19,664 bases of DNA, taken from the UHGV virus genome UHGV-0301534; one strand, given 5' to 3'. Positions 5,567-15,741 of this stretch are shown one piece after another. A program made the translations under genes and the position numbers. The stretch is from a virus. The notes beneath the pieces were generated by a model. It did not search any database, had not been told where the DNA came from, and saw nothing but the letters and a program-made list of their open reading frames with translations. How positions within the stretch are numbered: the first letter of the stretch is position 1; every line of letters begins with the position of its first letter.

Positions 5567-6861
5567 TGGCATTAAATGAAGGTCAACTGGTCACGTATGC
5601 TCTGGATGAAATCATCGAAACCGTCCAGAACCTGACGCCAATGGCGTCCAAAGTGACAAAATACACCCCTCCGGCAGAATCCATGCAGCGTTCAAGCAAC
5701 ACCGTGTGGATGCCTGTTGAGCAGGAAGCGCCAACCCAGACTGGCTGGGATTTAACTGGCAACGCAACCGGGATTCTGGAACTCTCCGTGAAATGCAACA
5801 TGGGCGATCCGGATAACGATTTTTTCGAGCTTCGTGCAGATGACCTGCGTGATGAGCGTTCTTACCGTCGCCGCATCCAGGCATCCGCCAAAAAACTGGC
5901 GAATAACATTGAGTCAGCGATTGCTAAACAGGCAACTGAAATGGGCTCGCTTGTTGTTCACGATACCCGCGCAATTGGTCCATCTACTGGCCTGTCTGGC
6001 TGGGATTTTGTGTCTGATGCAGAGCGCCTGATGTTCTCCCGTGAGCTAAACCGCGATATGGGCATCAGTTACTTCCTGAACCCTGACGATTACCGCAAAG
6101 CAGGCCGCAACCTGGTAGATGGTGACATCTTTGGGCGCGTTCCTGAAGAAGCGTATCGCAACGGTACTATTCAGCGTCAGATTGCTGGCTTTGATGAAAT
6201 TCTTCGCTCACCGAAACTTCCGGCAGTTACCAAGTCAACCGCTACTGGTGTAACTGTGTCTGGTGCGCAGAAGTTTAAGCCGCAGGCATACACCCTTGAT
6301 ACCGATGGTAACAAAGAGAACGTTGACAACCGTGTTGCAACGGTGACCGTATCCTCCACCACCGGGTTTAAGCGCGGCGACAAAATCAGCTTCACTGGTG
6401 TGAAATTCCTGTCTCAGATGGCGAAGAACGTGCTAACTGATGACGCGACTTTCTCAATCACCCGTGTGATCGATGGTACTCACATCGAAATCACGCCGAA
6501 ACCGATTGCACTGGATGACGCGTCACTGACAAAAGAAGAGAAGGCTTACGCTAACGTAAACACCTCTCTTGCTAATGCCACTCCGGTAAACGTTCTGAAC
6601 GTGGCAACAACCACCGCTAACGTGTTTTGGGCTGATGACTCAATCCGTCTGCTGTCTCAGCCGATCCCGGTAACCCATGAACTGTTTGCTGGCATGAAAA
6701 CGTCTTCCTTCAGCATTCCTAGTATTGGTGTTAACGGCATCTTCGCAACGCAGGGTGATATCAACACTCTGTCTGGTAAGTGCCGTATTGCTGTGTGGTA
6801 TTCAGCATGTGCTGTACGACCAGAGGCAATTGGTGTTGGTCTGCCTAACCAGACTGCGTGA
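5566..6861 (+). CDS. 5: major capsid (coat) protein (P22 gp5-like), 431 aa
   Basis: ATGA-type overlap with the scaffold stop; [10 protein letters not shown]...[14 protein letters not shown] matches recalled P22 coat protein. Confidence 0.95.
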
Positions 6862-11151: not shown

Positions 11152-12567
11152 ATGGCTACGTGGCAACAGGGTATTAATTCTGGTGGTTTTCTGGCTGGCA
11201 TCGGTACGCAAAATGAGAATGCGCCAAAGGCAAGCGACATTAACGCAACGCTTGGTCTGATCCGCGAAAACAATGAACTGGCTCGCTCAGGTGCAAATAA
11301 CGTTGGCCTGACCGCGTTACGTGGTCTGGCTGGAGTTGCTGATATTTACAATCAGGAACAGCAACAGAAAGCTATTAGTGCGTTCAATAAGGTTCACGCT
11401 GATGCATGGGCTTCTGGTGATCCATCGGGACTATTTAAGTTTGCCCAGGAAAATCCAGCGTTTGTTGCACAGGCACAACAGGCGTTTTCCGGTCTTAATG
11501 ATCAGCAACGCAACGATATGGGCGATTTAGCCATGAGGGCTAACGTCGCTCTTTCTCAGGGACCGGAAGCCTACAGTAAATTCATTACTGACAACAAGGA
11601 CAGGTTAAATCGCGTTGGTGCTAATGCTGACTGGATGATTCAGACAGGTATCCAGAATCCAGAGCAGCTATCACACATGCTGACTACTATGTCTCTCGGT
11701 GCACTTGGTCCAGAAAAGGCGTTTGCTGTTCAGGACAAGATGGCTGGTCGTGAAATTGACCGAGGCAGGCTGGCAGAGACAATCCGCAGCAATCAGGCAG
11801 GAGAAGCACTTCAGGCGAGAGGGCAAAACCTTTCCTATCAGTCAGCAATGACTGGGCACAATATCGCAGCACAACGCTTAGCTCTGGATCAGCAAGAGTT
11901 CGGGTTTAAGATGCAGCAAGCGCAGGAAAAGGCTCAGCAGTTGATTAGCGAAGCACCTAAGCTGTCAGTAAACATGGAAAAAGGCATCGAGACGGCTGTA
12001 AACAATGCTACAGCATCATCAAACTCAGCCAATTCTATGAGTGCGCTTGCTCAACAGTTCAGAGCAGAAAAACCAACGACAGGTTTGTTCGGTAACGCAC
12101 AGAACATGTTCGCAAAACTTACCGGAAGCGATACAACATTGCGTGATTTGCGCATTCGCCAAAATGCCCTTGTTAACAGTCAGGTTCTTAAATTCCTACC
12201 TCCCGGCCCAGCAACGGATAAAGACGTTGAGATCGTTCGACAGGGTGCGCCAACTGACATGGATAACCCTGAGACGGTCGCAAGATGGCTTGATGCAATG
12301 GCAAACCTTGAGCGACGAAACGCGCAGTTTAATGAGTTTAAAGCCGAGTGGATGAGCGCGAATGGCAACCCTGGACAATCGCGTAATGGCGGTCAGATAT
12401 TGGGGTTGGATGTTAAAAAAGGTGAATCATTGGGGAGTGCCGTTAAGCGGTATATGTCAATGAATACTGACGCAGCGCCAGCACAAGATTCGACACCTTC
12501 AGGAGAACCACGGAATCAGGTTGGATCATATACCTCAAAATCAGGCATTCAATTTACGGTGGAATGA
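11152..12567 (+). CDS. 20: ejection protein, P22 gp20-like, 471 aa
   Basis: Synteny and length match P22 gp20. Confidence 0.88.
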
Positions 12568-14405
12568 TGAAAGTAACTGCAAACGGTAAGACATTTACCT
12601 TTCCTGATGGTACGAGCACCGAAGATATTGGCACCGCCATTGATGAGTATTTTGCTGGTCAGGCTGTTCAGCAACAAACAGTTAATCAGGCCAATAATGC
12701 ACCAACACGGGAAGAACCATCATTGATGCAACAAGCTGGTGATTGGCTCACAGGTGGTCAAAGTGCAGGGCAAATTGCAGAACAGGCTGGTCGTGGTCTG
12801 GTAAACATACCATTTGACGTATTGCAGGGTGGCGCAAGTCTGATTAATGCAATCAGCCAGGGGCTTGGCGGCCCCAAGGTTTTGGATGATGTTTATCGCC
12901 CTGTCGAGCGACCGACAGACCCTTATGCGCAAGCTGGAGAAACAATTGGCGGGTATTTAGTTCCAGGAGTTGGAACGGCAGGAAGCATGGCTATTGGATC
13001 ACTGGCAGAGGCCGCAAATCAGAAAGGCGATTTCGCACAAAATGCAGCTAAAAATGCCGGAGTTAACCTTGCCGCTCAGGGTGTTCTTTCCGCAGCAGCA
13101 AAGGGAATAGGGCGTGGAATAACGGCTATAAAAGGTGATATTGCGCCAGAAGTGGCGAAGAAAATTGCCACATCAGAATCGATGGGCGTGACACCAATGA
13201 CATCTGATGTTATCCCGCCGAAAAATGCTTTCACTCGCGGACTTACTCAGGATGCTGAGGGGGCTTTGCTCGGGACAGGCTCAAAGCGAGCTGAGCAATA
13301 TGCAACGCGTAGTAAGCTGGTAAGCAATTATTTTGACCGTTTTGGTGAGTACAACCCTGATGATGTGGTGAAGTCTCTTACCACCACGTTAAGGGGGCGG
13401 AAGGATGCCGCTGGCGCTGTTATCAATGACGTCACCAATAAAATGGGTAATGCCGCAGTTGATACCACAAATACCATGAATGCTCTGAATACAGCGATCG
13501 CAAGACAGGAACGGCTTGGGACGTCTGCCAATCAAAGCCTGCTTACATCCTTGCGTAACCTGCGTGAAGAATTAGCAAACCCTGCAACTGATTTGGATGT
13601 TACGTTTGATCTCTTGCGTCAGCACAGAACAGCATTTAGATCTAATGTTCAGGGAGATGCTATGGTCTTCCCCAACCAGGCAAAAGCAGCTACCAATATG
13701 GTAGAGAATGCAATGTCAAAAGACCTTCGTAACGCAGTTGCAAAAAACCTCGGTGCGTCAGACGCAGCAAAATACCTTAAAGCAAATTCCGATTATGCAA
13801 ACGTTTATAATAAGGTGCTTAATAAAAACATTGCTAACAAGCTCAACAAGGCAAGCAGTGAAGCCAGTCCTGAACTTATAAATACTGTTGTATTAAGCAG
13901 AAAACCATCTGACGTGAAACGAATCTGGAGCGCATTGGATGATAAAGGGAAAGATGCTATGCGTGCAGCTTACGTCAGCAAAATAGCGGAAAAGGCCGGG
14001 GACTCTCCAGCCAAGTTCATCACTGAAGTTAATAAGCTGAAATCTCAGTCAGGCGGTGAAATTTACAACACTATTTTTTCTGGAAAGCACATGAAAGAGC
14101 TTGATGCTCTTCATGAAGTTCTACAGCAAACAGCAAGGTCAGACACCGCAAATGTAGTAACTCAGACTGGGCAATCACAAGCCAACAGGATAAGGACGAT
14201 TGGCGCAACTGCGACTCTTGGCGTATCAATGGGGATTGAGGCTGGTTTCGGTGCAATGATGCGCTTGTATGAGTCCAAAGCAGCAAGGAATGCGCTCTTA
14301 CGTCTGGCAAACACCAAAGCAGGAACACCAGCCTATGAAAGAGCGTTGAGTAACGCAGCAAATGCCATCAGGCCGCTGCTTGCTACTGAGGCAACACAGC
14401 AGTAA
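12564..14405 (+). CDS. 16: ejection protein, P22 gp16-like, 613 aa
   Basis: ATGA overlap with the gene 20 stop; synteny and length close to P22 gp16. Confidence 0.88.
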
Positions 14406-14429: not shown

Positions 14430-14819
14430 TTAACATTTTCTTTTTACTTTTCCAACAAAAGCTTTGGTTGAATCCATATTCCCATAACCAGAAATGGTTT
14501 TCGACATTAAAACTGTTCCATTAGGATGTATTACCCATGAGTCGATAACTCGTTGAGTTTCGCCATTCGCGCCGATTCCAATGATGGAGTTTTTAGACAA
14601 TGCTTTGTAAGCCATGCCGCCCGCATCCGTCCCAGAATATGTGATACTGGCATCTTCACCGTTTGTCTTAATGATGAATGTTCCACTAAAACCATCTTCT
14701 TCCGGTTGAAAATTATTTCGTTCTGAATAGCTTATTCCGTGCATATCCCCAACGACCCAGCACTCTGCTGAGACAGAAAACGAGAAGACAAGGAAAGCCA
14801 TTGCTATAATCAATTTCAT
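14430..14819 (-). CDS. exported protein of unknown function, 129 aa, with signal peptide and two Cys in the mature part (one next to the predicted cleavage site, one as the last residue)
   Basis: N-terminus MKLIIAMAFLVFSFSVSA-ECW is a typical Sec signal with AxA-like cleavage site; AAGGG RBS 7 nt upstream on the - strand; mature part rich in G/S/T/I/V; occupies the position of P22 sieA. Confidence 0.7.
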   Translation of the reverse strand: MKLIIAMAFLVFSFSVSAECWVVGDMHGISYSERNNFQPEEDGFSGTFIIKTNGEDASITYSGTDAGGMAYKALSKNSIIGIGANGETQRVIDSWVIHPNGTVLMSKTISGYGNMDSTKAFVGKVKRKC

Positions 14820-14834
14820 TTTAAGCCCTTATTG

Positions 14835-15170
14835 TTATTGATTCTTTTTGCACGGAAATGTTTTTCCTACTGCTAGGGCGGTTAGTATAACTGCGCTCTC
14901 ATTTCTTGATTCTGGGTTTTTGTTTAGATATTTCTCAACGATATCGGTGTATTGATACATGTCAACGCCATCAGGAGGACATAGAGAACCAATTAGTATC
15001 AATGAGTCAGTTACTCCGCGCAAATATCCAGTAATGTAAAGCGATGAAAAATCATCACCCTTTTTACCTTGTTGAATGTTGTAAAGAAGGTCATTACCCG
15101 TTTGAAGCTCGCGCAGCTCAGCACTGGAAGAAGAGACAACTGCTAACAAGAACAGTGATAGAAATCTCAT
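14835..15170 (-). CDS. exported protein of unknown function, 111 aa, with signal peptide and two Cys in the mature part
   Basis: N-terminus MRFLSLFLLAVVSSSSA-ELRE is a Sec signal; start codon overlaps the mnt stop (ATGA on the - strand, 15167-15170) with AAGGA 6 nt upstream, so translation is coupled to mnt. Confidence 0.7.
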   Translation of the reverse strand: MRFLSLFLLAVVSSSSAELRELQTGNDLLYNIQQGKKGDDFSSLYITGYLRGVTDSLILIGSLCPPDGVDMYQYTDIVEKYLNKNPESRNESAVILTALAVGKTFPCKKNQ

Positions 15171-15421
15171 TTCAAATCCTTTTCATAAATCTTTTTAAGT
15201 GTCTCAAACACTATAGCCTTGAACTGCTCAGCCTGCTGATCAGCCAAGCGTTCAGCTTCGTCGCGATATCCTGTAATCGGTGATGGTTTTGATAGTGCAT
15301 CCTGAACGATTTGTAATAACTCAGAGTTCATTGACCTTCCGTTAGCCTCGGCTCTTAATTTCAATTTTTCTCTTACTTCCAAAGGCATACGGAAGTTAAA
15401 GTGCGGATCATCTCTAGCCAT
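15167..15421 (-). CDS. mnt: Mnt repressor (ribbon-helix-helix), 84 aa
   Basis: Product MARDDPHFNFRMPLEVREKLKLRAEANGRSMNSELLQIVQDALSKPSP... matches recalled P22 Mnt; the ORF-track 207-aa version is an upstream extension running antisense through arc/ant. Confidence 0.9.
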   Translation of the reverse strand: MARDDPHFNFRMPLEVREKLKLRAEANGRSMNSELLQIVQDALSKPSPITGYRDEAERLADQQAEQFKAIVFETLKKIYEKDLK

Positions 15422-15443: not shown

Positions 15444-15472
15444 TTGACATGATAGAAGCACTCTACTATATT
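15444..15472 (+). promoter_or_regulatory. Pant promoter (-35 TTGACA 15444-15449, -10 TATATT 15467-15472) with the overlapping Arc operator (ATGATAGAAGCACTCTACTAT)
   Basis: Sequence matches the P22 Pant/Oarc region as recalled; TAGA...TCTA half-sites between -35 and -10; directly upstream of arc. Confidence 0.7.
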
Positions 15473-15477
15473 CTCAA

Positions 15478-15673: not shown

Positions 15674-15741
15674 AGTTGAAGCCCCAACTGCGGGAACAGT
15701 CAGGGCTTCGGTTGTCAGTAAATCCGTGGAGAAAAACCAAC

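Follow-up and report, generated by a model that had tools for sequence, protein, structure and literature searches.

We analyzed a 19,664-nucleotide stretch of viral DNA (UHGV virus genome UHGV-0301534; hereafter the window), which comprises the late and immI regions of a P22-like Escherichia coli prophage. Our subject is an open reading frame (ORF) of the minus strand at 14835..15170, which encodes a 111-aa protein of the Rap1a/Tai4a family. [quoted passage not shown] The suggestion that it protects against a T6SS effector derives from the membership of the protein in this family.

A predicted exported protein of the Rap1a family

The ORF starts with ATG, ends with TAA (14835-14837) and lies exactly where a preliminary description of this DNA, made from the sequence alone, had placed it. 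An AAGGA Shine-Dalgarno sequence (15177..15181, minus strand) stands 6 nt 5' of the ATG, within the 3' end of the repressor gene mnt. Homologues with 50-100% protein identity occur at 20 or more independent loci, and nonsynonymous divergence (dN) in this clade is far below synonymous divergence (dS): dN between subclades is 0.15-0.58 with dS saturated, and close pairs give dN/dS ratios of 0.11-0.52. Given its Pfam match (see below), its conservation in many loci, the dN/dS values and the Shine-Dalgarno sequence, the ORF is a real gene and more than a chance reading frame. An identical protein (100%) is present in RefSeq as WP_001211768.1, 'Rap1a/Tai family immunity protein', and among 5426 complete genomes of E. 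coli, 26 (~0.5%) have the gene, in every case on the chromosome.

The protein matches the Pfam family PF18602 (Rap1a) over the whole profile (positions 1-90 of 90) with 55.3 bits, compared with a gathering cut-off of 27.7 (E 9.7e-15). When a close-clade profile was used for an exhaustive search with HMMER, 3595 cluster representatives were retrieved at E <=0.001; one representative, P0008, a 2316-aa low-complexity repeat protein, was set aside as a spurious match. In an alignment of 131 of these family members, the near-invariant positions are G25, N26, G52, C64, Q73, P86, P106 and C107. When the PDB was searched with a profile built from these 131 sequences, the matches were confined to two protein families, namely Tai4 of Agrobacterium tumefaciens (6ije/6ijf, 2.6e-9) and Rap1a of Serratia marcescens (4bi8/3zfi, 1.7e-7), and both cysteines of the protein were aligned. 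A profile was needed for this clear match, as a single-sequence phmmer search of the PDB gave only marginal scores (E 0.08). Neither the profile search of the PDB nor the list of Foldseek matches contained an entry of the classical Tai4 fold (Rap2a, EcTai4, StTai4); that fold is distinct from the Rap1a fold, and its hallmark is a protruding loop that enters the effector's active site (PMC3852654). Searches of NCBIfam and PADLOC returned zero matches for the Rap1a-like gene and for its neighbor orf129, and PHROGs returned only families of unknown function.

Structure prediction points to the same family. The AlphaFold2 model has a mean predicted local distance difference test score (pLDDT) of 90.9, with values of only 66-68 for residues 1-20 and of 96-98 for residues 21-100. 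Following a low-confidence N-terminal signal helix, the model contains helices at residues 25-36, 40-59, 71-84 and 93-104 and a short one at 86-88. When the model was compared with the PDB by Foldseek, the top seven matches were chains of 4bi8, 3zfi, 6ije and 6ijf, with a probability of 1.0, target-normalized template modeling (TM) scores of 0.71-0.74 and 23-27% identity; the match at rank 8 had a probability of 0.38, which leaves a gap between these structures and noise. The predicted structure is thus a five-helix fold of the Rap1a type, and the profile matches and the model together place the protein in the Rap1a ('Tai4a') family, PF18602.

The N terminus resembles a Sec signal peptide. Codons 1-17 (15120..15170, minus strand; MRFLSLFLLAVVSSSSA) encode Met-Arg, a hydrophobic core (LSLFLLAVV) and then SSSSA; cleavage is predicted in front of E18, where positions -3 and -1 hold small residues. 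This assignment is based on the n/h/c-region pattern and on hydropathy; the LSLFLLAVV core is the most hydrophobic Kyte-Doolittle window of the entire 111-aa protein (3.04). The pattern is kept in all close homologues, though the signal sequence itself drifts. Signal peptides of 26 and 25 residues are described for Rap1a and Agrobacterium Tai4, respectively (PMC3852654, PMC6277958). We therefore predict that the protein is exported by a Sec-type route and is periplasmic. The mature protein would comprise 94 aa and would be acidic (pI 4.96), a property that we count in favor of the family assignment, as the Serratia Rap proteins are acidic (PMC3533786).

The only cysteines in the protein are C64 and C107, each of which is at least 90% conserved in the 131-sequence alignment. 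Profile alignment to 4bi8/3zfi and 6ije pairs Cys64 (codon 14979..14981, minus strand) with Cys78 of Rap1a and Cys80 of Agrobacterium Tai4; Cys107 (codon 14850..14852, minus strand), which is part of a C-terminal FPCK motif, aligns with Cys122 and Cys124. These family disulfides (C78-C122 in Rap1a, C80-C124 in Agrobacterium Tai4) are needed for folding (PMC3852654, PMC6277958, PMC3533786), and the Rap1a disulfide is described as required for the Rap1a fold (PMC3852654). Judging from the alignment, C64 and C107 are positioned to form the structural disulfide of the family, which connects the loop between helices 2 and 3 to the C-terminal FPC motif.

These results confirm what the preliminary description had observed about the protein. 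It had predicted export with cleavage after SSSA, a mature part of ~94 aa, a single cysteine pair and a largely helical structure; we find a Sec-type pattern ending before E18, 94 aa after the predicted cleavage, C64 and C107 with no other cysteine, and the helices of the AlphaFold2 model. The Pfam search that it had suggested gave the full-length PF18602 match above cut-off. Its idea of an immunity-like or inhibitor-like fold needs to be narrowed: the Rap1a type is borne out by PF18602, the PDB profile search and Foldseek, and lysozyme inhibitors, DUF1311/LprI proteins and the classical Tai4 fold were not matched. Likewise, of the structures that it had named for comparison with an AlphaFold model, Foldseek retrieved Rap1a and Agrobacterium Tai4, and DUF1311/LprI was absent from the matches.

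Overlap with mnt in the immI region

The gene order in this part of the window is gene 16, orf129, the Rap1a-like gene, mnt, the Pmnt/Pant-like promoters, arc, sar, ant and tailspike. The gene mnt (15167..15421, minus strand; RefSeq coordinates) encodes an Arc/Mnt ribbon-helix-helix repressor (Pfam Arc 4.1e-28, Repressor_Mnt 1.4e-11), and its TGA overlaps the ATG of the Rap1a-like gene in the tetranucleotide ATGA at 15167-15170. A consensus scan detected a Pmnt-like promoter (TTGAGA-17 nt-TATCAT; 15449..15477, minus strand) and, overlapping it, a divergent Pant-like promoter (15444-15472, plus strand), a layout that corresponds to that of the annotated Pmnt/Pant of P22. The sar antisense RNA is found at the arc-ant junction (15674-15741, minus strand; Rfam RF00262, 95.6 bits). 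This canonical sar confirms that the P22-type immI region is complete.

To judge from this arrangement, mnt, the Rap1a-like gene and orf129 look like one operon served by the Pmnt-like promoter. The ATGA overlap, the AAGGA Shine-Dalgarno sequence and the canonical immI elements all argue for a Pmnt-driven expression context. Mnt is annotated in P22 as a repressor for the maintenance of lysogeny, and the P22 protein is made in the lysogen, so that one would naturally expect the prophage to express the cargo. Two sigma-70-like matches fall inside the coding sequence of the Rap1a-like gene (14909-14965, minus strand; for example TTGACA-16 nt-TATCGT) and might provide orf129 with a separate transcript; the scanned region contains four consensus-promoter matches, near the mean of 3.0 for shuffled sequences.

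The flanking genes are those of a P22-like phage. Gene 16 (12564-14405, plus strand) encodes an ejection protein. The gene orf129 (14430..14819, minus strand) encodes an exported protein of 129 aa and all-beta structure that belongs to the Sf6 gene-38 family, and it has an AAGGG Shine-Dalgarno sequence in the 15-nt gap that follows the Rap1a-like gene. In RefSeq/PGAP, orf129 is annotated as a 104-aa protein that begins at an internal Met and is devoid of the signal peptide (20031-20345 of locus L001, equivalent to 14430-14744 of the window). This start is probably wrong, since the 129-aa form with its signal peptide is conserved in all homologues. According to the P22 annotation, the corresponding slot of P22 reads mnt-orf59a-t_mnt, followed by sieA.

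Orphan status and relatives

We looked for a cognate effector in E. coli XJW9B263, the one genome in which the prophage was read from end to end. No T6SS component or Tae4-like effector is annotated in the ~37-kb prophage (sbcB-dacD) or in its flanks, and the orphan status that the preliminary description had envisaged for the gene in its prophage holds for this genome. None of the other loci whose neighboring genes were read has an annotated T6SS or Tae4 gene. In these loci the gene is neither adjacent to an annotated Tae4 effector nor part of a T6SS cluster; such linkage is typical of cognate pairs and not required for orphans.

The close relatives share the position behind mnt. All relatives with 50-100% identity whose surroundings were read directly follow an mnt-type gene in P22-like prophages (E. 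coli, Serratia fonticola and IMG/VR contigs), and the same 4-base overlap with mnt occurs in 4/4 loci for which coordinates were compared (L003, L005, L024 and L032). For Silvania confinis, the check was confined to the mnt end and the orf129 homologue. Around these relatives, the ejection proteins, ant, tailspike and even mnt itself differ strongly. The next downstream gene also varies: it may be an orf129 homologue (48-100% identical), a 154-aa predicted lipoprotein or a second paralogue, and elsewhere there is either none called or a 75-aa ORF. The gene orf129, which is 'gene 38' of phage Sf6, is also found in phages that have no Rap1a-like gene, such as Salmonella phage Emek. Given the variable downstream genes and the occurrence of orf129 alone elsewhere, we regard this slot as a moron hotspot in which the Rap1a-like gene is one cassette, tightly attached to mnt.

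Two of these loci deserve separate mention. In a P22-like prophage of S. fonticola (L003, 10001-10715), two Rap1a-family paralogues of 112 and 119 aa, 32% identical to each other, form a tandem immediately behind mnt that looks like a small array of immunity genes. In L024, the Rap1a-like gene, a 50%-identical relative, is followed at 6351-6815 by an ORF of 154 aa whose signal is lipobox-like (LALASC) and which represents another exported cargo in the same slot.

More distant members occur in other phages. Scanning of genome contigs with the close-clade alignment yielded one locus, and tblastn against isolated phage genomes gave only two distant matches. The metagenome-assembled phage DSL-LC04 encodes a family member (30% identical) among small genes, and the phage-like contig L029 has a distant member among small early-type genes. 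Distant proteins with a Rap1a fold are also found in the virulent N4-like coliphages Bp4 and SP5M (Escherichia phage Bp4 orf70, L042 12806-13135; BFVD X2KQV6 and A0A7D5JCW4); the N4-like protein has a signal peptide and both cysteines, and its gene lies among early or middle genes. A clear family member (profile E 5.5e-22) is gp59 of 'Bacillus phage' vB_BspP_Dartukuta (L027, 2336-2698), whose recorded host is Bacillus. An 'outer membrane lytic protein' is also annotated in this record. Either the recorded host is doubtful or the family extends beyond Gram-negative hosts.

Proposed function and alternative explanations

Rap1a and Agrobacterium Tai4 are periplasmic, disulfide-bonded five-helix proteins that dimerize via helix 2. 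Their dimers bind two peptidoglycan D,L-endopeptidases of the Tae4 family and block the active sites sterically, giving heterotetramers with Ssp1 or AtTae4 (PMC3852654, PMC6277958, PMC3533786). We propose that the Pmnt transcript that supplies the Mnt repressor in the lysogen would also carry the Rap1a-like gene, whose translation would be coupled to that of mnt. The precursor would be exported by Sec, the C64-C107 disulfide would form in the periplasm, and the protein would dimerize through helix 2 in the manner of Rap1a. If the T6SS of a neighboring bacterium injected a peptidoglycan D,L-endopeptidase of the Tae4 class (Ssp1-like, NlpC/P60-type), two such effector molecules would be bound by the dimer, which would block their active sites sterically. 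The lysogen, and the prophage with it, could then survive the attack without owning the weapon, which would make the gene a lysogenic-conversion trait.

Within the phage clade, the segment G68-D76, which follows C64, is almost invariant. In our alignment it corresponds to Rap1a residues 79-90, in which most of the Ssp1-contacting residues of Rap1a lie (PMC3852654). Codons 65-67 (14970-14978) vary among otherwise very similar members, which have PPD, TPD, PTT, PSP, PAP, PTP, EPD or PPQ at these positions. The combination of an invariant stretch with variable residues 65-67 would fit a conserved binding surface with a variable, possibly specificity-determining rim, and we take it as only a hint.

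Several points weigh against this proposal. In a hand alignment derived from the profile match, the 12 Ssp1-contacting residues of Rap1a are mostly replaced in our protein: E90 alone is matched by a similar residue (D76), and Rap1a Gln84, which bonds the catalytic His of the effector, aligns with D70. An equivalent of Gln84 is also absent from Agrobacterium Tai4 (PMC6277958). With these contact residues not conserved, nothing ties the protein to a known Tae4. The neighborhoods of family members that were read revealed no effector partner; beside distant family representatives a Tae4 neighbor was never found, where most contigs are too short to say, some lack Pfam annotation and one is phage-like. 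Transcription from Pmnt, export, disulfide formation and dimerization are all steps that we infer, and sequence scans found no clear terminator or operon end, including after orf129. Finally, a Rap1a fold is present in virulent N4-like coliphages, to which lysogenic conversion cannot apply, so that the phage members of the family may serve a phage-specific purpose.

These points leave room for other explanations. The lack of a linked effector, an interface that differs from that of Rap1a in our alignment and the rarity of the gene among complete E. coli genomes (26/5426) would all be compatible with a neutralizer of a Tae4-like or other periplasm-acting toxin whose delivery does not depend on T6SS but on contact-dependent inhibition, a bacteriocin or outer-membrane exchange, or with a decayed, partnerless immunity gene that hitch-hikes in the moron slot. 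We consider this unlikely. Decay is at odds with strong purifying selection, the near-invariance of G68-D76 in the phage clade and the retention of the signal peptide and both cysteines, and for the non-T6SS route we found no partner of this kind described for the Rap1a family in the papers that we read. Slightly less likely again, in our judgment, is a role in phage-phage conflict, in which a periplasmic inhibitor of the NlpC/P60 or CHAP hydrolases of other phages (at the virion or tail tip, or in an endolysin) would mediate superinfection exclusion or delay lysis. The gene fills the slot that the superinfection-exclusion gene sieA occupies in P22, every close relative whose surroundings were read is phage-borne, and an immunity based on lysogeny would be senseless for distant members among the small early-type genes of DSL-LC04, L029 and the virulent N4-like phage Bp4 (orf70). 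On the other hand, no phage hydrolase is known as a target of this fold, whose only characterized partners are T6SS Tae4 effectors (PMC3852654, PMC6277958), and the prophage's own endolysin carries the annotation of a glycoside hydrolase of family GH24 rather than of an NlpC/P60 enzyme. Moreover, similarity to SieA is absent (BLASTP E = 6.7 over 11 residues), and the defense models of PADLOC were unmatched.

Family members are found not only in P22-like prophages but also in other phage contigs and, in distant form, in virulent N4-like coliphages. This distribution could also suggest a broader view, to which we give about as little credence as to phage-phage conflict. Rap1a-fold proteins would then be a widespread phage tool, namely exported inhibitors of NlpC/P60-type hydrolases that serve the phage either by shielding the infected or lysogenic cell from T6SS or by disarming the wall-degrading enzymes of rival phages, for superinfection exclusion or control of lysis, and T6SS immunity would be only one face of the family. 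By far the least plausible alternative is the other possibility raised by the preliminary description, in which the protein inhibits lysozyme or is a periplasmic protein of the DUF1311/LprI kind. Such proteins resemble ours in general properties only, being small and exported with a cysteine pair; Ivy, MliC/PliC and DUF1311 were unmatched in Pfam at E <=1, and structures of this kind are absent from the Foldseek PDB matches, which Rap1a and Agrobacterium Tai4 monopolize.

Novelty and implications

The family, its fold and the way in which its founding members act have all been described before, and an automated name for the protein is already present in RefSeq and UniProt. Orphan immunity genes on mobile elements are likewise an established concept (bioRxiv 10.1101/471110; PMC7400221; PMC12288458), and Ralstonia prophages carry whole T6SS toxin-immunity clusters (PMC11481896). 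The present context, a Rap1a-like gene carried directly after mnt by a P22-like phage, is one for which we found no describing paper. Our literature search, whose coverage was incomplete and left most subscription journals outside, found no paper in which a Rap1a/Tai4a gene is described as the cargo of a phage, or as coupled to mnt in P22-like phages.

If the protein does protect, lysogenization alone would enable E. coli to resist one class of T6SS toxins that act on the cell wall. This resistance would move with the phage across strains and genera (E. coli, Serratia, probably Silvania, and the hosts represented by viral contigs), and acquired interbacterial defense would extend from conjugative elements to phages. 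It would also provide a concrete case of phage-host mutualism in gut competition and would add T6SS immunity to the cargo list of the gene 16-mnt moron slot in P22-like phages. The practical value is modest, given that the family has already been named and that the gene occurs in ~0.5% of complete E. coli genomes.

Comparison with known systems

Among the closest known systems is Rap1a (SMA2260) of Serratia marcescens Db10, which confers immunity to the T6SS effector Ssp1 (PDB 3ZFI, 4BI8) and is the founder of PF18602, the 'Tai4a' family. Our protein belongs to the same Pfam family, matches 3zfi/4bi8 with target-normalized TM scores of 0.72-0.74 and shares with Rap1a a Sec signal peptide, a similar size and an acidic mature form; its cysteines are 43 residues apart, compared with 44 in Rap1a. 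In contrast, identity is 23-24% and the Ssp1-contact residues are not conserved. Whereas rap1a stands next to ssp1 in a T6SS cluster (PMC3533786), the gene described here follows mnt in a prophage, with neither an effector nor a T6SS cluster.

Tai4 of Agrobacterium tumefaciens (Atu4346; 6IJE, 6IJF), the immunity protein to Tae4, gave the best PDB profile match (2.6e-9), with 25-27% identity and target-normalized TM scores of 0.71-0.73. Its disulfide occupies the same positions (C80-C124, PMC6277958), and both proteins are missing the equivalent of Gln84. It differs in being chromosomal and paired with its effector, and in having a longer helix 2 and a longer loop between helices 1 and 2, both of which contact a second effector molecule (PMC6277958).

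With respect to position, the counterparts are orf59a and sieA of P22, which occupy the same slot between gene 16 and mnt in the orientation of mnt. They show no sequence similarity to the Rap1a-like gene, and the annotated role of SieA is the exclusion of superinfecting phages rather than the inhibition of a toxin in the periplasm.

The nearest conceptual parallels are the acquired interbacterial defense (AID) clusters of Bacteroidales and an immunity islet of Salmonella Typhi, described as horizontally acquired, effector-less immunity genes directed against the T6SS toxins of other strains (bioRxiv 10.1101/471110; PMC7400221). One gene of the islet, t0730, is reported there to have an HHpred match to S. 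Typhimurium Tai4 (PMC7400221), a protein of the other (Tai4) fold (PMC3852654). As described, these systems consist of arrays on mobile elements or in an islet, whereas ours is a single gene in a phage regulatory operon; the concept of orphan immunity is the same.
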